IMG/VR virus record: IMGVR_UViG_3300023174_009216
Length of the DNA: 64,000 nt
DNA from: a virus
Taxonomy: Duplodnaviria > Heunggongvirae > Uroviricota > Caudoviricetes
Direction: 5' to 3' (one strand)
Made by a program: the position numbers and the translations under genes. Shown piece by piece: positions 10,931 to 57,293 of the stretch. A model generated the notes under the pieces. The model had not been told where the DNA came from and did not search any database. It worked only from the letters and a program-made list of their open reading frames with translations. Every line of letters begins with the position of its first letter. Within the stretch, counting starts at the first letter, position 1.

Positions 10931-10970
10931 ATTGTAATTCTTTTGAATTTTATATATCCAAAAATATAGG

Positions 10971-11042
10971 TAGTCCCACCTAGACTCGAACTAGGATATC
11001 AGGTTTAGAAAACCTGCGTTCTATCCCTTGAACTATGGGACC
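10971..11042 (-). tRNA. tRNA-Arg(TCT)
   Basis: Hand-folded cloverleaf. Acceptor GGTCCCA/TGGGACT, D stem GTTC/GAAC, anticodon stem CAGGT/ACCTG with loop TTTCTAA, T arm CCTAG-TTCGAGT-CTAGG. Confidence 0.75.
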
Positions 11043-11138
11043 ATTTCGACATGGAGTAGTCACGGCCACCTCTAATCCTTCCATGTCTGTTTGTAACCGA
11101 AGCAAAATGTGGCTCGACTCTAGTTACAATCTTTTTAT

Positions 11139-11795
11139 TTATCTTCTTTTTAAAAATTTGTTTCTTAAAACTGGAATTAAAAAAGCCATTAAGGTAGCTA
11201 ACGAGAATACTAGATCCACACCCTCTGTGTTTAATCCTTTTGTCCAATAGCTTGCTACCAGCCTTATACCTAATACTCCTATCACCCAATAAGCTATTTT
11301 TTCTAAAAGTGGAACTTCCTCTAGGACTTTTACGAATGCAGTCGTGGCAAATCTCATTGCAAATATACCAATGAATACACCGCCACAGATCAACCAAAGA
11401 TTATCAGTGAAAGCCACAGAAGCAAATACATTATCAATACTAAATACCAGATCCATAATCTCTATCATCACCACAGTTGACCAGAATGTGTTTAGGAAAG
11501 GTATTTTTATAGGTTTAACGTGTCCGTTCTTCTGCTCTTTAAAAAGTGAGCTATAAGCTAAATAAACAAGGTATAAACCTCCTAGAACTTTAAGCCATAG
11601 TATATTGATCAGAACAGAAGCAAACACTAGTGCCAAGCCTCTAAAGACGTATGCACCAATGATTCCATAAGTTAGAGATTTCTTTTGCTGGCTCTTAGGT
11701 AACTGCTTTACCATTGTTGCTAAGACAGCTGCATTGTCTATACTTAGGACTATTTCTAGTAATAAGATATTTAGAAAGATTATTATCTGTGTCAT
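11139..11795 (-). CDS. TerC-family integral membrane protein
   Basis: Multiple TM segments with repeated SIDNAAVLA / SIDNVFA motifs typical of TerC. Confidence 0.7.
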   Translation of the reverse strand: MTQIIIFLNILLLEIVLSIDNAAVLATMVKQLPKSQQKKSLTYGIIGAYVFRGLALVFASVLINILWLKVLGGLYLVYLAYSSLFKEQKNGHVKPIKIPFLNTFWSTVVMIEIMDLVFSIDNVFASVAFTDNLWLICGGVFIGIFAMRFATTAFVKVLEEVPLLEKIAYWVIGVLGIRLVASYWTKGLNTEGVDLVFSLATLMAFLIPVLRNKFLKRR

Positions 11796-12079
11796 AAGGA
11801 TTTATTGATTATAGAATTTTTTCCATTAAAAAATTCGATCATGGAAATTTTTCCACTAAAACAAGATTTTTGGAGAATTTTTTCCATTATACTATTTTTC
11901 TTCTATTGCTTCCCAGGGAAACTCTGTAAGCAAAAGAATTTTATGCATTATCTCTTTATCTATAGCCATTCTCAATTCCTCCACCAAAAAATTAGTTATT
12001 TTACGTTCTGCCTTCTTTTTTTTCAGATATATTCTTTCTCTTCTTTTCATATTGTTTTTTATCTAACCTAAGAATTATG

Positions 12080-12152
12080 TGGACCCAACAGGATTCGAAC
12101 CTGTGACCTCAAAATTATGAGTTTTTTGCTCTACCAGCTGAGCTATGGGTCC
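12080..12152 (-). tRNA. tRNA-Met or Ile2 (CAT)
   Basis: Acceptor GGACCCA/TGGGTCC, D arm GCTC-AGCTGGTA-GAGC, anticodon loop CTCATAA, T arm ACAGG-TTCGAAT-CCTGT. Confidence 0.8.
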
Positions 12153-12163
12153 AGTTATATTTG

Positions 12164-12242
12164 TAGCCAGGACAGGATTCGAACCTGTAATACCGGTTTG
12201 ACCACTCGACGTGGTTGCGTCTATCCATTCCGCCACCTGGCT
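12164..12242 (-). tRNA. tRNA-like gene with Leu-type D arm and atypical anticodon arm (possible TCG anticodon)
   Basis: Acceptor AGCCAGG/CCTGGCT, D arm GCGG-AATGGATAGA-CGC, T arm ACAGG-TTCGAAT-CCTGT. Anticodon region ACCAC-GTCGA-GTGGT gives a 5-nt loop or a 4-bp stem with loop CGTCGAG (G33). 79 nt. Confidence 0.45.
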
Positions 12243-12362
12243 ATTTTTCTTTACTTCTTTTTACCAGTATTAACGGCAATCACAAATAATGATAATGTAC
12301 AGAATACAGTACATACAGGATAAAGTATATGCGTTAAAAAATTTTCCATATTATTTTATTTT

Positions 12363-12458
12363 TCATATTTCTTTTTTATCTTTTCTATGTATTTTTATTC
12401 TAACTCCGAAGAATGTAAAAAACACAATAACAAAAATAAATCCTATAATTAATTTCAT
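12363..12458 (-). CDS. small hydrophobic peptide (31 aa)
   Basis: ATG preceded by the conserved upstream motif AAAACAATAGAAAGTT. Encodes MKLIIGFIFVIVFFTFFGVRIKIHRKDKKEI. Below the ORF-track length cutoff. Confidence 0.3.
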   Translation of the reverse strand: MKLIIGFIFVIVFFTFFGVRIKIHRKDKKEI

Positions 12459-12464
12459 AACTTT

Positions 12465-12674
12465 CTATTGTTTTACGTAGTCCATTGTTTCTCTCATTTT
12501 TGCAATCAATGCTTCCATGCTTTCAGTATTCAAATATAATCTACCATTGTGATAGTCGTCAGCACTTTCTTTAAATTCTATAACGATACCATCGAATTCA
12601 GGTGTAGGCTGTATTCTAATGTCCTGATCGTTTTCTGTTGTGATTTCTGTTTTTATCCAGACTTTACTTTTCAT
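12465..12674 (-). CDS. hypothetical protein
   Basis: 69 aa acidic ORF inside the tRNA region. Confidence 0.4.
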   Translation of the reverse strand: MKSKVWIKTEITTENDQDIRIQPTPEFDGIVIEFKESADDYHNGRLYLNTESMEALIAKMRETMDYVKQ

Positions 12675-12758
12675 ACTATTTAAGTTTTAAGATAGTTTAT
12701 TTTTTCTCGTATAATATTACTTATAGTAACAAAATACGAGAATTTTTAAACTAAAAAG

Positions 12759-12832
12759 CGGATCGGACGGGACTCGAACCCGTGACCTCTGCCGTGACAG
12801 GGCAGCATTCTAACCAACTGAACTACCGATCC
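12759..12832 (-). tRNA. tRNA-Asp(GTC)
   Basis: Acceptor GGATCGG/CCGATCC, D arm GTTC-AGTTGGTTA-GAAT, anticodon stem CTGCC/GGCAG with loop CTGTCAC, T arm ACGGG-TTCGAGT-CCCGT. Confidence 0.85.
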
Positions 12833-12838
12833 TAGCGG

Positions 12839-12911
12839 TACCATGTACGGGGGTCGAACCCGTAATCTTCTCCGTGAAAGGGAGACGACTTAACCATTTG
12901 TCCAACACGGC
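12839..12911 (-). tRNA. tRNA-Glu(TTC)
   Basis: Acceptor GCCGTGT/ACATGGT (two G-U pairs), anticodon stem TCTCC/GGAGA with loop CTTTCAC, T arm ACGGG-TTCGACC-CCCGT. CC encoded. Confidence 0.75.
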
Positions 12912-12997
12912 ATTTTAATTCCTTATATCAAAGAACTCGTTATTTTTATTAACGAAGCAAATATAAAGTTTACGAGGGAAAAGAAAAAATGCTTTTT

Positions 12998-13669
12998 TTA
13001 AATCACCTGTTCTCTGTTATCTATATGAAAAATAACACAGGTATAATATTCTATAAAATGTTCATTCCACAAATCCCATTTTATATTCACACCATTAAGG
13101 GAGAAAACTTCAAAATTTGGAAATTGAGGAAGTATATTATCTCTGAAGTTTCTAAATCTTTCTTTATCTACTTCTGATAAATGCCATTCTCCGACAATCT
13201 TTTTAACTTTTGATTTTATGAATTCCATATTCTCTTCACAAAATATATCATATTCTCCGCCTTCACAATCTGTCTTTAAAAAATCTATTCTTTCTATACC
13301 ATATAATTTTAAAAAAGTAGAGAATTTAATGGTTTCTATTAGTTCTCCTCCTGGTCCCTCATAGTAAACACCAGGCATAAATTTTTGACCATCAGAATTT
13401 GAGATTGCCTTGCTTATGTGTGTAACTGGATGGCCCATTGTATTTTTAACCAGGAGGGGCAAAATAGTCCTTGATGGTTCAAAACAGAAAAAATGTTTAG
13501 CACCCTTATCTAAATTATTATAAGTAAAAGGTCCCCAACTAGCTCCGATATCAACAACTAGATCTCCTGGCTCAACTTCAAAAAACCTAGAATATTGGTT
13601 TATGTCATCAATATATTGATTCACATATTGTTCTTGATCACCTCCCCATTGAAAATTAGTAAAATCCAT
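12998..13669 (-). CDS. SAM-dependent methyltransferase, FkbM family
   Basis: LVVDIGASWGPFT glycine-rich SAM-binding motif followed by FCFEPS, matching the FkbM pattern. 223 aa. Confidence 0.6.
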   Translation of the reverse strand: MDFTNFQWGGDQEQYVNQYIDDINQYSRFFEVEPGDLVVDIGASWGPFTYNNLDKGAKHFFCFEPSRTILPLLVKNTMGHPVTHISKAISNSDGQKFMPGVYYEGPGGELIETIKFSTFLKLYGIERIDFLKTDCEGGEYDIFCEENMEFIKSKVKKIVGEWHLSEVDKERFRNFRDNILPQFPNFEVFSLNGVNIKWDLWNEHFIEYYTCVIFHIDNREQVI

Positions 13670-13753
13670 AGTTTTTATTTTTATATTCTCTTTATACTAA
13701 CAGTGGTTAGGCAAAGTTTCTTCTTGGAAGGAAAAAATGCTTTTAATTTTTTG

Positions 13754-13837
13754 TCGGACAGGTGAGAGTCGAACTCACTCAGCTATAAAGCAACGGTGTT
13801 ACAGACCGTCCTGGCTCTCCAACTCCAGCGCTATCCG
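13754..13837 (-). tRNA. tRNA-Tyr(GTA), class II with long variable arm (bacterial type)
   Basis: Acceptor CGGATAG/CTGTCCG, D arm CTGG-AGTTGGAGAG-CCAG, anticodon stem ACGGT/ACCGT with loop CTGTAAC, 14-nt variable arm with GCT-TTAT-AGC hairpin, T arm GTGAG-TTCGACT-CTCAC. Confidence 0.8.
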
Positions 13838-13843
13838 AAATTG

Positions 13844-13915
13844 AGGACTGGGAGAATTACGATATCTCGACCCCGAAGTTAACAGCTTCGTGCTCTGCCT
13901 CTGAGCTACCAGTCC
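13844..13915 (-). tRNA. tRNA-Asn(GTT) with non-canonical T loop
   Basis: Acceptor GGACTGG/CCAGTCC, D arm GCTC-AGAGGCA-GAGC, anticodon stem CGAAG/CTTCG with loop CTGTTAA. T arm GAGAT-ATCGTAA-TTCTC has A54 and one mismatch. Confidence 0.65.
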
Positions 13916-13967
13916 ATTTTGCTATTATGTTGCAACCAACGTTTTCTTGATGAGGAACGACCTGGTG

Positions 13968-14041
13968 TGCTTATGGGAAGACTCGAACTTCCAACCTTCC
14001 ACGTATCAGGCGGATGCTCTAACCAATTGAGCTACATAAAC
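13968..14041 (-). tRNA. tRNA-Ile(GAT)
   Basis: Acceptor GTTTATG/CATAAGC, D arm GCTC-AATTGGTTA-GAGC, anticodon loop CTGATAC, T arm GGAAG-TTCGAGT-CTTCC. Confidence 0.85.
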
Positions 14042-14161
14042 ATTTGATACGATTGCTGTTATTGGTTCGTATCAGACCTCCCCTTGCCCGTAATATAGTC
14101 TACTCGCTACTGTTATTCGCTTTCACTATACCCTAAAGGTTTGCCGGATGCACTAGTAAGG

Positions 14162-14249
14162 CGGAAAAGGCAGGATTCGAACCTGCGCGCCAGCTTTCAC
14201 CGACGAACGGTTTAGCAAACCGCGGCAGTACCACTATGCTTACTCTTCC
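14162..14249 (-). tRNA. tRNA-Ser(GCT), class II
   Basis: Acceptor GGAAGAG/CTTTTCC, anticodon stem GCGGT/ACCGT with loop TTGCTAA, long variable arm of about 20 nt, T arm GCAGG-TTCGAAT-CCTGC. CC encoded. Confidence 0.75.
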
Positions 14250-14254
14250 TAATG

Positions 14255-14328
14255 TGTTCTGAGCGGGATTCGAACCCGCACTGTATAAATTTTAAGTCTA
14301 TCACCTCTCCCTGTTGGGTTACCAGAAC
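14255..14328 (-). tRNA. tRNA-Leu(TAA), class-I-like (short variable loop)
   Basis: Acceptor GTTCTGG/TCAGAAC, anticodon stem ATAGA/TTTAT with loop CTTAAAA, 5-nt variable loop, T arm GCGGG-TTCGAAT-CCCGC. 74 nt. Confidence 0.7.
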
Positions 14329-14333
14329 TTCTG

Positions 14334-14406
14334 TACTCTTGGTCGGATTCGAACCGACACTGAATGGCTTCTAAGACCATTGCCTCTCCCGTTGGGCTAC
14401 AAGAGC
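14334..14406 (-). tRNA. tRNA-Leu(TAG), class-I-like (short variable loop)
   Basis: Paralogous to the preceding gene. Acceptor GCTCTTG/CAAGAGT, anticodon stem ATGGT/GCCAT with loop CTTAGAA, T arm GTCGG-TTCGAAT-CCGAC. Confidence 0.7.
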
Positions 14407-14412
14407 ATTTGG

Positions 14413-14483
14413 TGTGACAGTGGGTATCGATCCCTATCTAACTGCTTCACAAACAGTCGTGCTACCATTACACTACAGTCACC
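14413..14483 (-). tRNA. tRNA-His(GTG) with encoded G-1 and aberrant T arm
   Basis: Extra 5' G before acceptor GTGACTG/CTGTCAC, D arm GTGT-AATGGTA-GCAC, anticodon stem ACTGT/GCAGT with loop TTGTGAA. T arm GGG-ATCGATA-CCC is only 3 bp and has A54. CCA encoded at 14410..14412. Confidence 0.7.
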
Positions 14484-14489
14484 ATATTA

Positions 14490-14548
14490 AAAATAGCATG
14501 TGTAGGATTGCTCACCTACTTCAGCCGTCGGACTGCGCATGCTATTTT
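14490..14548. repeat. 11-bp inverted repeat AAAATAGCATG / CATGCTATTTT with nested GTAGG/CCTAC hairpin
   Basis: Perfect 11-bp arms at 14490..14500 and 14538..14548. The spacer contains GTAGGATTGCTCACCTAC. Lies between tRNA-His and tRNA-Ser. Confidence 0.6.
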
Positions 14549-14550
14549 GG

Positions 14551-14632
14551 CGGAAAGTGACGGACTCGAACCCCCACGGCTGTTACACCCTCATAGTTTT
14601 CAAGACTACGTACCACTCCTTTGGGACCTTCC
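14551..14632 (-). tRNA. tRNA-Ser(TGA)-like, class II
   Basis: Acceptor GGAAGGT/ACTTTCC, anticodon stem GTAGT/ACTAT with loop CTTGAAA, 17-nt variable region, T arm GGGGG-TTCGAGT-CCGTC (one mismatch). D arm weak. CCA encoded. Confidence 0.6.
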
Positions 14633-14639
14633 TTTTTTG

Positions 14640-14712
14640 ATGCCACAGCTGGATTTGAACCAACACCAACTCAGTCAAAGTGAGTTATGCTAAACCGTTA
14701 CACTATATGGCA
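14640..14712 (-). tRNA. tRNA-Gln(TTG)
   Basis: Acceptor TGCCATA/TGTGGCA, anticodon stem ACTCA/TGAGT with loop CTTTGAC, T arm GTTGG-TTCAAAT-CCAGC. Confidence 0.8.
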
Positions 14713-14804
14713 ATAAAGAAATTAGAGAATTTTTAAAAAGTGTGTGTTTGGGTCAAATTTTCCTTTTGATGATGTAACACTTTCTACCGCTTCTAACTTC
14801 AGTG

Positions 14805-14876
14805 AGCGGGTAAATGGAATCAAACCATCGTCTGCTGGTTGGAAGCCAGCCATAATAATCACTATACGATACCCGC
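14805..14876 (-). tRNA. tRNA-Gly(TCC)
   Basis: Acceptor GCGGGTA/TACCCGC, anticodon stem GCTGG/CCAGC with loop CTTCCAA, T arm GATGG-TTTGATT-CCATT. Ends +/-1 nt. Confidence 0.75.
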
Positions 14877-14883
14877 TTGTTGG

Positions 14884-14956
14884 AGGCCAATCCCAGAGTC
14901 GAACTGGGGACTCATGATTACAAATCACGTATTCTCACCAACTGAACTAATCGGCC
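14884..14956 (-). tRNA. tRNA-Thr(TGT)
   Basis: Acceptor GGCCGAT/ATTGGCC, D arm GTTC-AGTTGGTGA-GAAT, anticodon stem CGTGA/TCATG with loop TTTGTAA, T arm CCCAG-TTCGACT-CTGGG. Confidence 0.8.
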
Positions 14957-15067
14957 ATACTTAAAATATTTTAATGTACCATATACTTGTGTCGATCAAG
15001 TCTAATATCGGATATGAGCCAATATTGGTCGCCGGACCATATGGTAGATAATAATATGTTTAATATT

Positions 15068-15898
15068 TTATATCTTGTCTTGAATCTTATATCTTTCTAA
15101 AAATAAATTAAATTCACTTTCAACAAATTTGGGATTGAATTTTCCCATATCTTTTATAACATAAGGAGAATATCCGCATTTTTTAATCTCCTCTATTTTA
15201 ATTTTATCCCTATTCTGGACCTGTTCTAGTGAATGCGATTTTTTTATTTTTCTATAATGCCAAACTCCATTCCACATTATAGCAATTTTCTCGTTATGTA
15301 AAATTATATCTGCATCCCATCCATTAAAAATATTTTCGTTATTGGTAACATTTTTGAATTTATCTTTACAAAGATCATAAAAAAGTTCTTCATTTTTGCT
15401 TCTCCTACCCTGAACTGAATTCCTTCCACCTACAGATCCAACGCAATTTAAACTGCAATATTTTCTACTTGATTTCTTATTACATTCAAAAACTTTATTA
15501 CAAAGTAAACAGTTTCTTTTATCTTTAAAATTCTTTGTTTTTTGTTTATTTCTATTCTCTTTATTTTTATCGTCTTTGTTTTTATTTCTGAGTGTTTTTG
15601 AAATTTTATTTTTAACTTCTTCATCCAGTATTCTAATATTAGAGCATTTATAAGAACAATTTTTTTTATATTTTCCTTCTATAAATCTTTTATTACTTAC
15701 TAATACTTCATATTCAACTCCACATTTTTCACAATTCAATATTCTTTTTTGTTTAATGTTAGGATTAGATCTCTTAACATTTTCCAAAAATTGATTTCTT
15801 TTTGGATTCATTAAACAATTTGTTTTATGAGCTCCTGGCTGTGTTCTTTTATCGAAGATAAAAGTTTCTTTACAATAATCGCAATTATAAGTATACAT
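15068..15898 (-). CDS. Zn-finger protein with C-terminal PD-(D/E)xK (Vsr/DUF559-like) endonuclease domain, putative homing endonuclease
   Basis: N-terminal half has at least four CxxC pairs and K/N-rich linkers. C-terminus WDADIILHNEKIAIMWNGVWHY fits the D..(D/E)xK nuclease motif. Sits between two tRNA sub-arrays. Confidence 0.45.
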   Translation of the reverse strand: MYTYNCDYCKETFIFDKRTQPGAHKTNCLMNPKRNQFLENVKRSNPNIKQKRILNCEKCGVEYEVLVSNKRFIEGKYKKNCSYKCSNIRILDEEVKNKISKTLRNKNKDDKNKENRNKQKTKNFKDKRNCLLCNKVFECNKKSSRKYCSLNCVGSVGGRNSVQGRRSKNEELFYDLCKDKFKNVTNNENIFNGWDADIILHNEKIAIMWNGVWHYRKIKKSHSLEQVQNRDKIKIEEIKKCGYSPYVIKDMGKFNPKFVESEFNLFLERYKIQDKI

Positions 15899-15962
15899 AG
15901 ATTATATATCATTGCGGCTAATGAAATCGAGCCTATTTAAAAAATCTTTTTATAAAAATAGT

Positions 15963-16049
15963 TGCAGGTGCCGGAATCGAACCGGACGTGTCCTTTGTTA
16001 AGAACTTTGGGTTATGAGCCCAACGAGTTTGACCTCTACTCTAACCTGC
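15963..16049 (-). tRNA. tRNA-like gene, CAT anticodon, 87 nt with 20-nt extra/variable region
   Basis: Acceptor GCAGGTT/CACCTGC (one mismatch), D arm GAGT-AGAGGTCAA-ACTC, anticodon stem TTGGG/CCCAA with loop CTCATAA, then 20 extra nt before T arm CCGG-TTCGATT-CCGG. Confidence 0.5.
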
Positions 16050-16054
16050 GATTT

Positions 16055-16143
16055 TTTCTGGGTTCCTGTTAATTCAGGTATTGATAGTCCACTGACGACT
16101 ATCTGTTTTTACTCCTCAGCAGAGATCTAAACTAAACCCATTG
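16055..16143 (-). other. degenerate tRNA-like cloverleaf / structured spacer
   Basis: Closing stem TGGGTT/AACCCA and three hairpins: CTC-TGCTGAG-GAG, GATAGTC-GTCAGTG-GACTATC (7 bp) and CCTG-AATTAA-CAGG. No canonical T loop. Confidence 0.35.
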
Positions 16144-16220
16144 TAGCCATTCCCAGAATCGAACTGGGGCAATACCCAGCTTGTAAGGCTGGAGCTCTAA
16201 ACCAACTGAGCTAAACGGCT
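16144..16220 (-). tRNA. tRNA-Val(TAC)
   Basis: Acceptor AGCCGTT/AATGGCT, D arm GCTC-AGTTGGTTTA-GAGC, anticodon stem CCAGC/GCTGG with loop CTTACAA, 7-nt variable loop, T arm CCCAG-TTCGATT-CTGGG. Confidence 0.75.
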
Positions 16221-16223
16221 GTG

Positions 16224-16295
16224 TGGACACGTGGGGAATCGAACCCTCATACGAATTGATTGCAAATCAATCGGTCTGCCATTGACTTCCGGCCC
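16224..16295 (-). tRNA. tRNA-Ala(TGC)-like, weak acceptor and D stems
   Basis: Perfect anticodon stem ATTGA/TCAAT with loop TTTGCAA and T arm GGG-TTCGATT-CCC. Acceptor GGGCCGG/CGTGTCC pairs at only 5 of 7 positions. Possible pseudogene. Confidence 0.45.
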
Positions 16296-16301
16296 ATATC
16301 G

Positions 16302-16377
16302 TAGAGTAAGCCGGGGTCGAACCGGCATGAATGTCTACATCCCAAATGTAGCGGCTTTCCAATTAGCCCATTACTCT
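16302..16377 (-). tRNA. tRNA-Pro(TGG)
   Basis: Acceptor AGAGTAA/TTACTCT, D arm GGCT-AATTGGAA-AGCC, anticodon stem CTACA/TGTAG with loop TTTGGGA, 8-nt variable loop, T arm GCCGG-TTCGACC-CCGGC. Confidence 0.75.
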
Positions 16378-16383
16378 ATAAAT

Positions 16384-16407
16384 GCTGGCTGATTAGGCTC
16401 AGCCAGC
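16384..16407. repeat. perfect 9-bp hairpin GCTGGCTGA-TTAGGC-TCAGCCAGC
   Basis: GC-rich perfect inverted repeat directly upstream (on the minus strand) of tRNA-Pro. Confidence 0.6.
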
Positions 16408-16440
16408 TAAGCCAATTTTTTCCACAATGTCAAAGATCTG

Positions 16441-16510
16441 AGGTTAGTGTTGGGATCGAACCAACTCCGTAGATTTTGCAGATCTACTGGCCTCCTAGAC
16501 CAAACTAACC
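16441..16510 (-). tRNA. tRNA-Cys(GCA)
   Basis: Acceptor GGTTAGT/ACTAACC, anticodon stem TAGAT/ATCTA with loop CTGCAAA, T arm GTTGG-TTCGATC-CCAAC. Short D arm. Confidence 0.7.
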
Positions 16511-16556
16511 ATCAATCCAGATTTTAATTATCACGCCAGATCTGGAACTGGACCTG

Positions 16557-16628
16557 TGCTCTCGAAAGGATTCGAACCCTTATTCTCTGATCCGTAGTCA
16601 GATGTTCTATCCATTAAACTACAAGAGC
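16557..16628 (-). tRNA. tRNA-Arg(ACG)
   Basis: Acceptor GCTCTTG/CGAGAGC, D arm GTTT-AATGGATA-GAAC, anticodon stem TCTGA/TCAGA with loop CTACGGA, T arm AAGGG-TTCGAAT-CCTTT. Confidence 0.8.
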
Positions 16629-16636
16629 AATTTTGG

Positions 16637-16707
16637 CGCGGGTTAGACGAATCGAACGTCTCCGGCGAGGTTTTGGAGACCTGCCCGGCTCCTTGCCTGT
16701 AACCCGC
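16637..16707 (-). tRNA. tRNA-Trp(CCA)
   Basis: Acceptor GCGGGTT/AACCCGC, anticodon stem AGGT/ACCT with loop CTCCAAA, T arm AGACG-TTCGATT-CGTCT. CCA encoded at 16634..16636. Confidence 0.7.
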
Positions 16708-16728
16708 TTATTATTTTTGTTCCCCCTA

Positions 16729-16823
16729 ACGGTACTGCCCCGTTTTCCACGAGTTAAAAGCTCGTTACTTCACTTTAAAGCTTAGAGGGATTTTTATACT
16801 CCCTTCCTGCTTTTAGTGAAGGG
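16729..16823. promoter_or_regulatory. cluster of four hairpins upstream of the tRNA array; the last two are mutually exclusive
   Basis: ACGG-TACTGCC-CCGT (16729..16743), ACGAG-TTAAAAG-CTCGT (16749..16765), AGGGA-TTTTTATAC-TCCCT (16786..16804), CCTTC-CTGCTTTTAGT-GAAGG (16801..16823). The last two share the CCCTTCC segment. Confidence 0.4.
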
Positions 16824-16987
16824 AGCTTATGTCTTTCGTTTTCGTTTCATATCTTCTTTACTTTTTTGTAATAGCTTCATAAAATCTTCAATCTCTTCTG
16901 ATCCAATTTTATACTCTTTGGATTTTGATTTTTTTAAATCATCGAATGTTGAATATTTAGTTAGCTTTTTCATTTTCATTTTTTATG

Positions 16988-17059
16988 TGGTGATGGGGAA
17001 TTCCGAGATCCCAACGCCCAGTTCTTCAAACTGGCGCTCTACCTTTGAGCTACATCACC
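16988..17059 (-). tRNA. tRNA-Phe(GAA) with non-canonical T loop
   Basis: Acceptor GGTGATG/CATCACC, D arm GCTC-AAAGGTA-GAGC, anticodon stem CCAGT/ACTGG with loop TTGAAGA. T arm GGGAT-CTCGGAA-TTCCC (C54, one mismatch). Confidence 0.65.
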
Positions 17060-17061
17060 AT

Positions 17062-17097
17062 AAAAAAACCCTGAATCTTTATGATCCAGGGTTTTTT
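17062..17097. terminator. bidirectional terminator-like hairpin (A-run, ACCCTG...CAGGGT, T-run)
   Basis: 6-bp GC-containing stem at 17068..17073 / 17087..17092 with 13-nt loop. Flanked by AAAAAAA and TTTTTT. Confidence 0.55.
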
Positions 17098-54782: not shown

Positions 54783-57293
54783 TTATACTATATACCAGTT
54801 TGCGTTATTAGATACTAAAGAGATTGCTGCATATTGAACTAAAAGTGTTGCTGTTGTTCCGTCATCTATTTTTTCAGTACCGCTTCCGTCTACTATTACT
54901 GAGTTAGCACCAGAGTCAGTTTTTTTAATTGTAAACTTAGCGGTGTTTCCCACAGCAGTTGGCAAGTTAATTGTTACTGTACCTCCTGCAGTTGCAGCAT
55001 CAACTAATATAATAATTTCACCAGAAGTTTGAGATGCATTATAAGTGGTGGAACTTTGTGATACTATTGTGTATGATCCACCAATACCAGATGTACCGGA
55101 AGATCCACTTGTTCCGGTAGATCCAGATGTACCAGAAGAACCAGAGCTTCCAGTTGATCCTGAAGAACCAGAAGAACCTGATGTCCCAGAAGAACCATTA
55201 GCACCTGATGTTCCAGAGGATCCAGATGTACCAGAAGAACCAGAGCTTCCAGTTGATCCTGAAGAACCAGAAGAACCTGATGTACCTGAAGAACCAGAAG
55301 AACCTGATGTACCAGAAGAACCATTAGCACCTGATGTTCCAGAGGATCCAGATGTACCAGAAGAACCAGAGCTTCCAGTTGATCCTGAAGAACCAGAAGA
55401 ACCTGATGTCCCAGAAGAACCATTAGCACCTGATGTCCCAGAGGATCCAGATGTACCTGAAGAACCAGATGTCCCAGAAGAACCATTAGCACCTGATGTT
55501 CCAGAGGATCCAGATGTACCAGAGGAACCAGAGCTTCCAGTTGATCCTGAAGAACCTGATGTACCAGAAGAACCATTAGCTCCTGATGTTCCAGAGGATC
55601 CAGATGTACCAGAAGAACCAGAGCTTCCAGTTGATCCTGAAGAACCAGAAGAACCTGATGTACCAGAAGAACCATTAGCACCTGATGTTCCGGAAGAACC
55701 AGAAGAACCTGTTGATCCTGAAGAACCAGATATACCAGATGTTCCGGAAGAACCTGAAGAACCTGTTGATCCTGAAGAACCTGATGTACCAGAAGAACCA
55801 CTAGCGCCTGAAGTACCGGATGTACCAGAAGAACCATTAGCACCTGATGTTCCAGAGGATCCAGATGTACCTGAAGAACCTGATGTACCAGAAGAACCAT
55901 TAGCTCCTGATGTTCCGGAGGATCCAGATGTACCAGAGGAGCCAGAGCTTCCAGTTGATCCTGAAGAACCTGATGTACCAGAAGAACCATTAGCTCCTGA
56001 TGTTCCGGAGGATCCAGATGTACCAGAAGAACCATTAGCTCCTGATGTTCCGGAGGATCCAGATGTACCAGAAGAACCATTAGCACCTGATGTTCCGGAG
56101 GATCCAGATGTACCAGAGGAACCAGAGCTTCCAGTTGATCCTGAAGAACCTGATGTACCAGAAGAACCATTAGCACCTGATGTTCCGGAAGAACCAGAAG
56201 AACCTGTTGATCCTGAAGAACCAGATATACCAGATGTTCCGGAAGAACCTGAAGAACCTGAAGAACCTGAAGATCCGCTTGTTCCAGAAGAGCCATTAGC
56301 ACCTGATGTACCTGAAGAACCTGTTGATCCGGAAGAACCTGTTGATCCGGAAGATCCTGATGTTCCTGTAGATCCTGAACTACCTGTTGAACCAGATGAT
56401 CCTGATGTACCTGTAGATCCTGATGTACCGCTTGAGCCAGAAGAACCTGATGTACCAGAGGAGCCTGTTGATCCTGATGTACCCGATATACCAGATGATC
56501 CAGAAGTTCCTGATGAACCATTAGCTCCTGAAGTTCCTGATGAACCATTAGCTCCTGATATTCCAGATGTCCCTGATGTACCAGGTGATCCTGTTCCTGA
56601 CGTTCCAGAAGAACCTGAATTTCCAGAAGATCCTGATGATCCATTAGATCCAAGAAACATCCAGGATATGGAATATTCTTTTCCTACTTGTAAACTTCCA
56701 TTGTATGATAATGCACTAAATAATGTATATTCAACAGTATTAACATCACTTAATGCCACATCGCTAACAATATAAATCCCACCAACTGTGTGATCATTAA
56801 CTTCAACTAGTTGGAGTATTAATTTTTGATTGTTGTTATCCTCCCAATTCTTAGCTGCATTATGCCAGTTATCTATAACTGACCCATAGACATCAAAATC
56901 ATAGCTAATTCCAAATTTAGTAACAGAAGATAATGTAGAGCTATTAGCTTGGAAGCTCCCATCGCTAACAGATCCAACTAAAGGTCCTTCATATTGAAAT
57001 CTTAAAGAATTACCTCCATCATTTCCTGTTTGTCCTGATGATCCCGATGTTCCACTAATTCCAGAGGATCCTGATGATCCGCTTTCCCCCGATGTTCCAG
57101 ATGTGCCATATGTTGCTCCAGATGTACCAGAAACACCAGAAGATCCCGATGTTCCTGTACCACCTCCTGAAATTTGTATCTCATCCCCTAGGCCATTATA
57201 AAATGTCCCATCATCTGATCTCTGGACAACGTGTTGAAATGTCTCAGAAATCTTTTGATTGGTAAGATTAAAATTCGGATTATTTCCAGGCAT
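54783..57293 (-). CDS. collagen-like (Gly-X-Y triplet repeat) fibre protein
   Basis: 836 aa. Central region of about 530 aa is uninterrupted G-S/T/A/N-S/T triplets (GSS GTS GSS GST ... GAN GSS GTS). Globular N- and C-terminal domains. Confidence 0.65.
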   Translation of the reverse strand: MPGNNPNFNLTNQKISETFQHVVQRSDDGTFYNGLGDEIQISGGGTGTSGSSGVSGTSGATYGTSGTSGESGSSGSSGISGTSGSSGQTGNDGGNSLRFQYEGPLVGSVSDGSFQANSSTLSSVTKFGISYDFDVYGSVIDNWHNAAKNWEDNNNQKLILQLVEVNDHTVGGIYIVSDVALSDVNTVEYTLFSALSYNGSLQVGKEYSISWMFLGSNGSSGSSGNSGSSGTSGTGSPGTSGTSGISGANGSSGTSGANGSSGTSGSSGISGTSGSTGSSGTSGSSGSSGTSGSTGTSGSSGSTGSSGSTGTSGSSGSTGSSGSTGSSGTSGANGSSGTSGSSGSSGSSGSSGTSGISGSSGSTGSSGSSGTSGANGSSGTSGSSGSTGSSGSSGTSGSSGTSGANGSSGTSGSSGTSGANGSSGTSGSSGTSGANGSSGTSGSSGSTGSSGSSGTSGSSGTSGANGSSGTSGSSGTSGSSGTSGANGSSGTSGTSGASGSSGTSGSSGSTGSSGSSGTSGISGSSGSTGSSGSSGTSGANGSSGTSGSSGSSGSTGSSGSSGTSGSSGTSGANGSSGTSGSSGSTGSSGSSGTSGSSGTSGANGSSGTSGSSGTSGSSGTSGANGSSGTSGSSGSSGSTGSSGSSGTSGSSGTSGANGSSGTSGSSGSSGTSGSSGSSGSTGSSGSSGTSGSSGTSGANGSSGTSGSSGSSGSTGSSGSSGTSGSTGTSGSSGTSGIGGSYTIVSQSSTTYNASQTSGEIIILVDAATAGGTVTINLPTAVGNTAKFTIKKTDSGANSVIVDGSGTEKIDDGTTATLLVQYAAISLVSNNANWYIV
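55060..56660. repeat. nucleotide tandem repeats encoding the Gly-X-Y region
   Basis: Near-identical 9/27/45/63-nt periodic units, e.g. ggatccagatgtaccagaagaaccattagcacctgatgttccagag recurring many times. Confidence 0.8.

Follow-up and report, generated by a model that had tools for sequence, protein, structure and literature searches.

Phage tRNA arrays are well known. T4 carries 8 tRNAs together with the stable RNAs C and D, T5 encodes about 24 tRNAs, and mycobacteriophages of cluster C1 encode 30-40; a further cluster is found in Vibrio phage 2.275.O. These clusters consist of co-oriented, tightly packed tRNA genes with small open reading frames (ORFs) interspersed among them, anticodons that match the codon usage of the phage, and embedded stable RNAs that are not tRNAs. 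Here we describe an array with the same general organization in IMG/VR virus record IMGVR_UViG_3300023174_009216, of which one stretch of 64,000 nucleotides was analysed (hereafter the window). On the minus strand at 10969..17059, 26 tRNA-like genes lie within 6.1 kb. Unlike the clusters named above, this one provides a complete minimal set with one tRNA per codon box and contains unusually many non-canonical architectures. New here are the many conserved non-canonical designs brought together in one array, a hidden tRNA-Lys, and a family of RNAs built on the scaffold of one array member, which we call X.

Initiator tRNAs belong to class I, and the tRNA elbow is made by G18 and G19 together with the TΨC sequence. 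To our knowledge, bacterial tRNA-Leu always has a long variable arm. Within the T arm, G53-C61 and U54-A58 have been described as strictly conserved, with A54:A58 occurring only in the eukaryotic initiator (PMC7912444). All four of these textbook rules, on the Leu arm, the class I initiator, the G53-C61 and U54-A58 pairs, and the elbow contact between G18/G19 and TΨC, appear to be broken within the one array.

We read the locus as a functional phage tRNA array that forms a complete decoder and incorporates conserved non-standard designs, and give this reading a probability of roughly 80%. Judged from sequence and predicted folding, about ten members appear to be non-standard: two tRNA-Leu genes with short variable arms, an initiator with a long variable arm, a compact tRNA-Met, a tRNA-Lys with a rewired elbow, and the Asn, Phe, His, Trp and Ser(TGA) genes. 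The same forms recur in independent phage contigs with compensatory base-pair changes, which argues that the odd members are not pseudogenes. The designs are thus best described as conserved functional RNAs kept by compensatory substitution, except for the A54/A58 loop of tRNA-His and the D arm of tRNA-Ser, for which we saw recurrence of the form only. They are family traits, not peculiarities of this genome. A preliminary description of the window had offered translational oddities, decoys and pseudogenes as alternatives; the first of these is supported in the sense of conserved functional RNAs, and their role in decoding we infer. The genes discussed first are as follows.

16988..17059, minus strand: tRNA-Phe(GAA), Rfam 51.2 bits, missed by ARAGORN
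16720..16790, minus strand: tRNA-Lys(UUU), 71 nt, missed by the preliminary description, ARAGORN and Rfam
16634..16707, minus strand: tRNA-Trp(CCA), found only by ARAGORN at lowered threshold, no Rfam match, CCA encoded
16223..16295, minus strand: tRNA-Ala(TGC), found only by ARAGORN at lowered threshold, Rfam 25.9 bits against a threshold of 29
15961..16050, minus strand: initiator-type tRNA(CAT), ARAGORN, Rfam 46 bits
14976..15045, minus strand: compact-core tRNA(CAT), ARAGORN only, minimum-energy fold a cloverleaf (z -2.3)
14548..14632, minus strand: tRNA-Ser(TGA), class II, ARAGORN, only a weak tRNA-Sec match in Rfam, CCA encoded
14410..14483, minus strand: tRNA-His(GTG), ARAGORN, Rfam 47.6 bits, CCA encoded
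14333..14406, minus strand: tRNA-Leu(TAG), 74 nt, G1·U72, A73, ARAGORN, Rfam 58.9 bits
14254..14328, minus strand: tRNA-Leu(TAA), 75 nt, ARAGORN, Rfam 53.2 bits
13843..13915, minus strand: tRNA-Asn(GTT), ARAGORN, Rfam 49.1 bits
12163..12242, minus strand: X, a putative non-decoding tRNA-like RNA, first base A at 12242, ARAGORN, Rfam 41.1 bits
12079..12152, minus strand: tRNA(CAT), candidate tRNA-Ile2, ARAGORN, Rfam 71.5 bits

ARAGORN at default settings finds 22 tRNAs in the whole window, all on the minus strand at 10969..16628. The Rfam model RF00005 places 20 genes above its gathering score, including the tRNA-Phe that ARAGORN misses, and a lowered ARAGORN threshold adds tRNA-Trp(CCA) and tRNA-Ala(TGC). 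Four genes (Trp, Ala, Lys and the ARAGORN-only compact tRNA(CAT)) need relaxed settings or comparative evidence. The earlier count of about 25 genes and all of the anticodons named with it are reproduced by these three sets of calls, and a 26th gene, tRNA-Lys(UUU), had been missed. Low covariance-model scores had been proposed as a sign against the aberrant members. Rfam misses Lys, Trp and the compact tRNA(CAT), and scores Leu, initiator, Asn, His, Phe and X above the gathering score. The oddities of the compact tRNA(CAT), Trp, Ser(TGA) and Ala had not been flagged before.

Divided at its structural boundaries, tRNA-Lys reads TCCCTCT-AA-GCTT-TAAAGTG-AAGT-A-ACGAG-CTTTTAA-CTCGT-GGAA-AACGG-GGCAGTA-CCGTT-AGGGGGA-A. 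It forms a perfect cloverleaf that is also the minimum-energy fold (z -2.3), with a canonical anticodon loop (CUUUUAA). The elbow is rewired, in that the D loop UAAAGUG lacks GG and the T loop is GGCAGUA (G54, G55, G58) in place of TΨCRANY. The related loci L275 and L101 carry a tRNA-Lys at the matching place, in the interval between Phe and Trp, with an identical acceptor stem. A metagenome scan with both Lys loops and the five acceptor G's returned 24 loci containing 11 distinct homologues with the same D and T loops. Pairing holds in 99.2% of cells across the 12 aligned Lys sequences (alignment A1), and both sides have changed in 14 of the 21 pairs, a result reached in 0 of 500 shuffles; slid registers give only 37-50% pairing. 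The gene belongs to a real and conserved tRNA-Lys family that ARAGORN and Rfam do not detect here. That a needed tRNA-Lys is invisible to both programs implies that standard finders under-count phage tRNAs, which affects studies of codon usage and defence evasion.

Once tRNA-Lys(UUU) is included, the array covers all 20 amino acids with one tRNA per codon box, plus the initiator. The anticodons UAG, UAC, UGA, UGG, UGU, UGC and UCC serve four-codon boxes, with ACG (I34-type) for Arg. Two-codon boxes and Trp are served by GAA, UAA, GAU, GUA, GUG, UUG, GUU, UUU, GUC, UUC, GCA, CCA, GCU and UCU, the wobble base in the two-codon boxes being G34 or U34; eight boxes, four-codon and split, are read with U34. 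Among the 15,513 codons of 53 ORFs in the window, T and A each occupy 38% of third positions (76% together), and G and C 12% each. ATA accounts for 49% of Ile codons and AGA for 72% of those for Arg, the commonest Leu codon is TTA, and AAA and AAG together make up 7.4% of all codons. The anticodon set agrees with this preference of the phage for A/U-ending codons, and the array has the appearance of a minimal complete decoder tuned to it.

Three genes of the array have a CAU anticodon and none has UAU. Given the heavy use of ATA, one of the CAU genes must then be a lysidine-type tRNA-Ile2. The best candidate lies at 12079..12152, where the antisense strand matches the Rfam family Plastid-ycf2, located opposite the plastid trnI-CAU gene, at 49.3 bits; this tRNA is probably tRNA-Ile2, reading AUA by means of lysidine.

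The second CAU gene, at 15961..16050, has the hallmarks of an initiator. As in bacterial tRNA-fMet, position 1 is mismatched (C1xA72), the D stem contains A11:U24 (GAGU/ACUC), three G:C pairs stand in the anticodon stem (G29-31:C39-41, GGG/CCC), the anticodon loop is CUCAUAA, and the discriminator base is A73. In contrast to the 5-nt variable loop of tRNA-fMet, its variable region is 19-20 nt long and forms a hairpin of 5-6 bp (GUUCU-UAACAA-AGGAC). The 20-nt insertion reported earlier after the anticodon stem is real; it is a variable arm, and the initiator identity of the gene had been overlooked. We considered an intron in its place and dropped the idea, since a group I intron would be longer and the element is maintained as a hairpin.

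A scan of IMG/VR for GGGCTCATAACCC followed 17-40 nt on by GGTTCRA returned 95 stretches comprising about 65 distinct sequences. These long-arm relatives have intact acceptor stems (mostly 6/6 pairs at positions 2-7), a 1:72 combination that is mostly non-Watson-Crick, and nearly always A73. Their variable regions span 12-27 nt and usually form small hairpins, often with GNRA-type loops. In an alignment of the 6 closest initiators (alignment A2), 98.6% of cells are paired, and the helix of the variable arm is 93% paired with compensatory changes. A11:U24 is invariant in this alignment, as is GGG/CCC, but the latter was fixed by the retrieval pattern. On these features we assign the gene as a predicted initiator.

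With the initiator and Ile2 assigned elsewhere, the third CAU gene (14976..15045) is left as the elongator, and it is probably tRNA-Met. Its core is compact. There is no linker at positions 8-9, the D arm has a 4-bp stem and a 4-nt loop, the anticodon stem is extended to 8 bp, the variable loop is reduced to 2 nt, and the T loop is AUCGACA (A54, A58). The same design is present in L501 and L513 with compensatory changes in the acceptor, anticodon and T stems, and about 10 further compact CAT tRNAs occur among the loci that we fetched. In tRNAPyl and mammalian mitochondrial tRNA-Ser(UCN), too, the linker from the acceptor to the D stem is short or absent, the D loop and the variable loop are small, and the anticodon stem is lengthened. 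We draw attention to the resemblance in these compact-core traits and claim no membership: unlike those tRNAs, the gene has a CAU anticodon, a longer (8-bp) anticodon stem, and comes from a bacterial virus.

The two tRNA-Leu genes had been described as tandem paralogs with short variable loops of the class I kind, and ARAGORN draws them in the same way, 4 nt apart and each with a 5-nt variable loop. Neither has the stem-loop variable arm of more than 10 nt that defines class II; both combine A73 with a Leu anticodon. A pattern built from the D arm and variable loop, free of the anticodon, matched more than 120 IMG/VR contigs, a figure that, like the others of its kind given below for pattern scans of IMG/VR, is a lower bound. 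About 120 of 123 matches are tRNAs of 69-79 nt, and their anticodons are only TAA, CAA, TAG, GAG and CAG. An alignment of 33 sequences has 99.2% of its cells paired and double changes at 15 of the 20 pairs, which none of 500 shuffles equals; A73 and the 5-nt variable loop are present in all 33, and G1·U72 in 23. Derivation of the pair from the adjacent tRNA-His, after the manner of yeast mitochondrial tRNA-Thr, was considered and dropped, as the D arm is Leu-like and only Leu anticodons occur.

The leucyl-tRNA synthetase of E. coli (LeuRS) is not known to require a long variable arm. The nearest published case is in horizontally acquired tRNA clusters of Mycobacterium mucogenicum and M. phocaicum, where a tRNA-Leu(TAG) with a short variable loop exists beside a normal long-arm chromosomal isoacceptor (PMC6582537). 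That trait is shared, but the report is a passing remark on one bacterial gene, whereas the phage family has five Leu anticodons, more than 120 contigs and covariation. Apart from general reviews, this remark was all that emerged from the literature searched for short-arm tRNA-Leu, long-arm initiators and A54:U58 in phages.

The canonical T arm has G53-C61, U54-A58, U55 and C56. Asn, Phe, His, the compact tRNA(CAT) and Lys all depart from this arrangement, and all of them keep C56. The unusual T loops of Asn, His and Phe had been proposed from hand folds, with mis-registration named as a risk. The registers drawn by ARAGORN (Asn, His) and in the Rfam alignment (Phe) bear out the folds, and the non-TTCRANY loops are real. 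In tRNA-Asn the D arm is UAGCUCAGAGGCAGAGC and the T arm is GAGAU-AUCGUAA-UUCUC, with U53·U61 and A54:U58. In tRNA-Phe the T arm is GGGAU-CUCGGAA-UUCCC, with U53·U61 and C54:G58; the innermost pair is flagged as non-standard by Rfam. Relatives of this gene in L275 and L255 have GUCGGAA loops that keep G58, and an exact search for the Phe T arm together with the acceptor stem gave no match. Both genes differ from the universal T-arm rules in having U·U for G53-C61, and we found no description of U53·U61 combined with A54:U58 or C54:G58 in the literature searched.

An exact 20-mer spanning the Asn T arm is present in more than 120 IMG/VR contigs, which yield 67 distinct tRNAs. Most are tRNA-Asn, and Met, Val, Lys, Ile, Thr, Pro and Gly are also represented. 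In nearly all of the 67 the D arm is TAGCTCAGAGGMAGAGC or a minor variant of it, and the acceptor and anticodon stems differ freely among them. Cultured phages of at least nine host genera (Vibrio, Cellulophaga, Klebsiella, Cronobacter, Gordonia, Salmonella, Proteus, Sinorhizobium and Rhodococcus) have annotated Asn genes related to these, in several cases with an identical T arm. The tRNA-Asn of Vibrio phage 2.275.O (L582, 1495-1566) has the D arm and U53·U61 of the gene in the window together with the canonical loop UUCGAAA. It looks like an intermediate form of the Asn scaffold, in a phage that is experimentally tractable. Across 2661 distinct phage tRNAs from all fetched loci, positions 54 and 58 covary: T:A is found in 2445, A:T in 151, A:A in 26, G:G in 16, C:A in 11 and C:G in 3, and 53:61 is U·U in 82.

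In tRNA-His, the T loop is AUCGAUA (A54, A58) on a T stem of three G:C pairs and A·A, in the register (A)GGG-AUCGAUA-CCC(A), and the acceptor stem contains U6xU67. Like the AUCGACA loop of the compact tRNA(CAT), this loop has the A54 and A58 of the eukaryotic initiator, whose T loop is defined by A54, A58 and A60 (PMC7912444). The encoded G-1 that had been noted before is confirmed at 14483; it faces A73, not the bacterial C73. The related locus L275 shares both G-1/A73 and the short T stem.

Two further decoders have altered D arms. tRNA-Trp has a 3-bp D stem, a 5-nt D loop and C27xC43, and its homologue in L268 shows a compensatory change of the D stem from GGC/GCC to GAC/GUC. tRNA-Ser(TGA) has a D arm so short that the anticodon falls at position 31, and a T stem with G·U/mismatch. 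This form is kept in L275, L255 and L247; the gene is 91% identical to that of L275, with a compensatory change in the acceptor stem.

The gene at 12163..12242, X, is of another kind. It combines an acceptor stem, T arm and D arm (GGCGGAAUGGAUAGACGC) of tRNA(Leu) type with an anticodon region that can be drawn either as a 5-bp stem, ACCAC/GUGGU, closed by a GUCGA pentaloop, or as C32-G33-UCG-A37-G38. Both drawings had been put forward in the preliminary description, as a 5-nt loop or G33 with anticodon TCG on a Leu-type D arm, and ARAGORN and folding agree with them. In related arrays we found units that share the 5' part AGTCAGGTGGCGGAATGGTAGACGC and the 3' part ACAGGTTCGAATCCTGTCCTGACTAC and differ in the middle. 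The two X motifs, AGYCAGGUGGCGRAA... and CAGGUUCGAAUCCUGUCCUGRCUAC, occur once in the window, at X itself, with 0 mismatches. More than 120 IMG/VR contigs contain the exact 25-nt 3' motif, some loci having as many as six copies.

This family comprises 155 distinct units of 55-183 nt, which Rfam sees only as weak tRNAs. Almost every middle is unique, and about one-third of the middles have homologues of 85-100% identity in other contigs, which indicates discrete, conserved types of 'cargo' rather than random sequence. The cargo loops show no preference for 7 nt, and the U33/R37 signature of an anticodon loop is present in only 2 of 27 seven-nt loops; in view of this we do not regard the units as decoders. 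For the same reasons we dropped the idea of X as a decoder with an intron or an odd anticodon. CGA, the codon matching its nominal anticodon, makes up 15 of the 15,513 codons. X appears to be a short form of a scaffold, widespread in phages, that carries varied hairpin domains where the anticodon arm would be, and we read it as a scaffold RNA compatible with tRNA processing. The family was not found in cultured phages. In 185,579 species genomes it occurs in 17 contigs only, all of them metagenome-assembled, and in no isolate genome.

The tRNA-like domain of tmRNA and engineered 'tRNA scaffolds' are built in a similar manner, with acceptor and T arm formed from the two ends and foreign RNA in place of the anticodon arm. 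The likeness to the X family is one of topology alone. X units differ from tmRNA in their length of 55-183 nt and in being Leu-like (A73, Leu-type D arm) and not Ala-like. ARAGORN makes no tmRNA call in the window.

X-type units also stand in tandem. L219 has at least 8 units in 3.5 kb and L453 has 6, and similar arrays with inserts of 30-130 nt are present in L320, L500, L520, L483 and L463. Such arrays may represent a new class of tRNA-scaffolded phage RNAs, and the family as a whole points to an unexplored class of phage small RNAs.

The arrangement C32-G33-NNN-A37-G38 recurs elsewhere as CGGAGAG, CGUCCAG, CGCUGAG, CGUUAAG and CGUGAAG, and can close to a GNNNA pentaloop as in X. Loci with this pattern are L101 (2139-2211), L188, L258/L259, L209, L225 and L303; the gene in L101 occupies the array position of X and has a different body. 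G33 is present in only 16 of 2679 tRNAs, mostly within this pattern.

How might such an array work? It would be transcribed as polycistronic precursors that start after a terminator-like hairpin at 17062..17093. Host RNase P and 3' nucleases would cut these precursors, helped by the 3-10-nt spacers, CCA would be added where it is not encoded, and host synthetases would charge the products. The phage could then keep translating when host tRNAs mismatch its codons or are depleted. We favour the view that the changes to elbow, variable arm and core leave the tRNAs usable by synthetases and the ribosome and would let them escape host enzymes that read standard tRNA shape or sequence.

Several points weigh against reading the array as a complete functional decoder. 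Conserved structure proves selection on the RNA, not decoding. The patterns used to retrieve the families fixed their diagnostic loops, so that loop conservation arises partly by construction and the independent evidence is the covariation of the stems. The 54:58 table is biased by the way in which the loci were fetched. Some comparisons draw on few sequences: one homologue for Trp, two close relatives for the compact tRNA(CAT), and six for the initiator subgroup. The division of the three CAU genes into initiator, lysidine-type Ile2 and elongator Met is itself inferential. Finally, the codon fit refers to the ORFs of the phage.

A sharper form of the same reading holds that the variants were selected to resist host tRNA-directed defences, toxins or modification enzymes. 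Candidates are anticodon nucleases such as PrrC, AriB of PARIS, PtuAB of retrons, VapC and colicins, along with enzymes that cut in the T loop or the acceptor stem. Phage tRNAs are known to rescue translation from PARIS and retron effectors (PMC11464382, PMC11555353), and it has been proposed that they carry nuclease-evading changes in the anticodon loop (PMC10264068). In the present array the most deviant elbow is that of tRNA-Lys, a classic nuclease target. The deviant families are spread over phages of many host phyla. In cellular genomes X alone was searched for, and it is essentially absent there. Against this, the odd decoders have canonical anticodon loops (CUUUUAA in Lys, CUCAUAA in the initiator), so that anticodon nucleases would still see their sites and any evasion would have to act through the elbow, variable arm or core. 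No phage-defence nuclease is documented to read those parts. We consider selection for resistance possible, though less likely than not.

A second explanation is that the deviations are neutral or nearly so: alternative folds arose once in phage lineages and spread by horizontal transfer, giving functional tRNAs whose unusual features are not adaptive. One scaffold, with D and T arms of the Asn type, is shared by tRNAs for Asn, Met, Val, Lys, Ile, Thr, Pro and Gly, which fits duplication followed by anticodon switching in a pool of mobile genes, and the swap at 54:58 keeps a plausibly isosteric pair. Compact cores work in tRNAPyl and mitochondrial tRNA-Ser(UCN). A54:A58 has a working precedent in the eukaryotic initiator (PMC7912444). 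Neutrality sits poorly with the 17-nt Asn T arm, which is constant base for base in more than 120 contigs across several host phyla while the stems are free, a pattern that suggests constraint beyond the fold. It also has to account for several independent deviations together in one array. We regard this explanation as unlikely.

It is very improbable that the aberrant members are pseudogenes, or that they act as decoys or sponges without decoding: Lys, Trp and the compact tRNA(CAT) do score under the default thresholds of Rfam and ARAGORN, but all bar Ala show compensatory evolution (as in Lys, the compact tRNA(CAT) and Trp), the Leu, Lys and initiator homologues are 98-99% paired where pseudogenes would not keep 99% pairing across divergent phages, and without Lys(UUU) and the compact tRNA(CAT) the set would lack Lys and elongator Met despite an AAA/AAG content of 7.4%. 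Two genes give it partial support. tRNA-Ala keeps G3·U70 and is the only member that looks decayed, because it has two mismatches in the acceptor stem and two in the T stem, an unremarkable folding energy (z +0.5) and a sub-threshold Rfam score, and the stems of its relatives are intact. For X alone a decoy role is plausible, as it belongs to a non-decoding tRNA-like scaffold family that carries arbitrary hairpins, has no anticodon-type loop, and would correspond to the rarely used CGA.

Returning to the reading of a functional array with conserved non-standard designs, we would tentatively go one step further. Uncultivated phages, probably of Bacteroidota, may carry a re-engineered tRNA set that is largely absent from cells, alongside an undescribed group of modular RNAs in which a near-invariant tRNA(Leu)-like scaffold presents dozens of different hairpins as cargo, each conserved in its own right and often in tandem. 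If true, phages would possess a semi-independent layer of tRNAs with shapes that synthetases and ribosomes can use and host tRNA-directed enzymes cannot, and would exploit host tRNA processing to make small functional RNAs. In any case the variants are natural test cases for the real needs of synthetases, formyltransferase, RNase P, the CCA-adding enzyme, EF-Tu and the ribosome, and possible parts for orthogonal translation systems.

The remaining tRNA genes of the array are as follows.

16556..16628, minus strand: tRNA-Arg(ACG), canonical, ARAGORN, Rfam 65.2 bits
16440..16510, minus strand: tRNA-Cys(GCA), ARAGORN, Rfam 39.2 bits, 87% identity to the L275 gene
16301..16377, minus strand: tRNA-Pro(TGG), ARAGORN, Rfam 55.2 bits
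16143..16220, minus strand: tRNA-Val(TAC), ARAGORN, Rfam 59.8 bits
14881..14956, minus strand: tRNA-Thr(TGT), CCA encoded, ARAGORN, Rfam 62.2 bits
14804..14876, minus strand: tRNA-Gly(TCC), ARAGORN, Rfam 57.8 bits
14639..14712, minus strand: tRNA-Gln(TTG), ARAGORN, Rfam 60 bits
14160..14249, minus strand: tRNA-Ser(GCT), class II, ARAGORN, Rfam 48.7 bits
13967..14041, minus strand: tRNA-Ile(GAT), ARAGORN, Rfam 68.1 bits, 93% identity to the L275 gene
13753..13837, minus strand: tRNA-Tyr(GTA), class II, ARAGORN
12837..12911, minus strand: tRNA-Glu(TTC), ARAGORN, Rfam 61.3 bits
12758..12832, minus strand: tRNA-Asp(GTC), ARAGORN, Rfam 71.5 bits
10969..11042, minus strand: tRNA-Arg(TCT), reading AGA, ARAGORN, Rfam 64.7 bits

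Many of the array genes are separated by gaps of 3-10 nt, and a few small ORFs interrupt them. CCA is encoded only in Trp, His, Thr and Ser(TGA). Arrays with the same gene order are present in the related loci L101, L275, L255 and L247. A megablast search of the whole array against 50,697 GenBank phage records gave a single 84-nt match and no close relative, and close matches for the array genes in these records did not extend beyond single tRNAs. The window has a G+C content of about 34%, and the surroundings of the array encode a collagen-like tail fibre, a nicotinamide phosphoribosyltransferase (NAMPT), a topoisomerase II subunit and a lectin-fold structural protein. These phage genes identify the window as part of a tailed phage, and the array belongs to a large, low-G+C tailed phage of an uncultivated lineage. 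The host is probably a member of the Bacteroidota; the sole clue is that 10 of the 17 contigs from metagenome-assembled genomes with X units are labelled Bacteroidota.

Three protein-coding ORFs and one hairpin belong to the same interval or adjoin it.

17062..17093, minus strand: intrinsic-terminator-like hairpin, 15 bp, -20.2 kcal/mol, z -6.1, U7 run, directly upstream of the first tRNA
15068..15898, minus strand: 276-aa ORF within the array, with Cys-rich zinc-ribbon-like motifs
12998..13669, minus strand: FkbM-family methyltransferase ORF within the array, Pfam PF05050, E = 4e-9
11139..11795, minus strand: TerC/YkoY-family membrane protein ORF within the array, Pfam PF03741, E = 4e-49

The hairpin marks the boundary of the upstream unit. 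Scans for promoters and terminators gave matches not above shuffled expectation. The 276-aa ORF has no match in PHROG, Pfam or the PDB, and the idea that it is a Vsr-like homing endonuclease was dropped for want of support from these three. A homologue of the FkbM-family ORF in L006 (10001-10576) likewise lies between tRNA genes. Among the 80 loci returned by this query, tRNAs are nearby only in L006; the other viral contigs, about 75, have none near the gene. Conceivably the enzyme could act in RNA methylation. The TerC/YkoY ORF has hundreds of homologues of approximately 72% identity labelled 'YkoY family', and phage relatives of 76-96% identity. It resembles an auxiliary gene taken from the host, which it could help to identify. 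A search for viral relatives of the locus by way of the 307-aa flanking protein and of TerC found none. Homologues of the TerC protein lead to related phage contigs, L415-L421, that carry X-type units; these contigs have no evident tRNA array, though the tRNA finder was not applied there.

The collagen-like tail-fibre gene (54783..57293) is overlapped by two long ORFs, one on the opposite strand (55045..56775) and one on the same strand in another frame (55064..56653). Such overlaps are expected from the composition of Gly-X-Y repeats, and the two are probably not genes.

Some spacers of the array are also structured. Val and the initiator are separated by a 92-nt spacer (16051..16142, minus strand) for which a three-way junction with GGGUUU/AACCC as its closing stem is predicted; the fold beats all 200 shuffles (z -3.6), and the spacer could be an unrecognised tRNA-like or other structured RNA. 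The 65-nt spacer between His and Ser(TGA) (14483..14547, minus strand) forms a 10-bp stem that encloses two hairpins and precedes a U run (z -3.9), and may be a terminator-like element, a processing element or a small RNA. Between a 50-aa ORF and tRNA-Lys, on the minus strand at 16791..16830, is a strong hairpin, GCUCCCUUC...GAAGGGAGU (z -4.6).

Among the fetched loci, 60 of 2679 phage tRNAs have C33 at the place where U33 is near-universal, and the anticodons tta (L225), cta (L263) and tca (L190) mark possible suppressor tRNAs.

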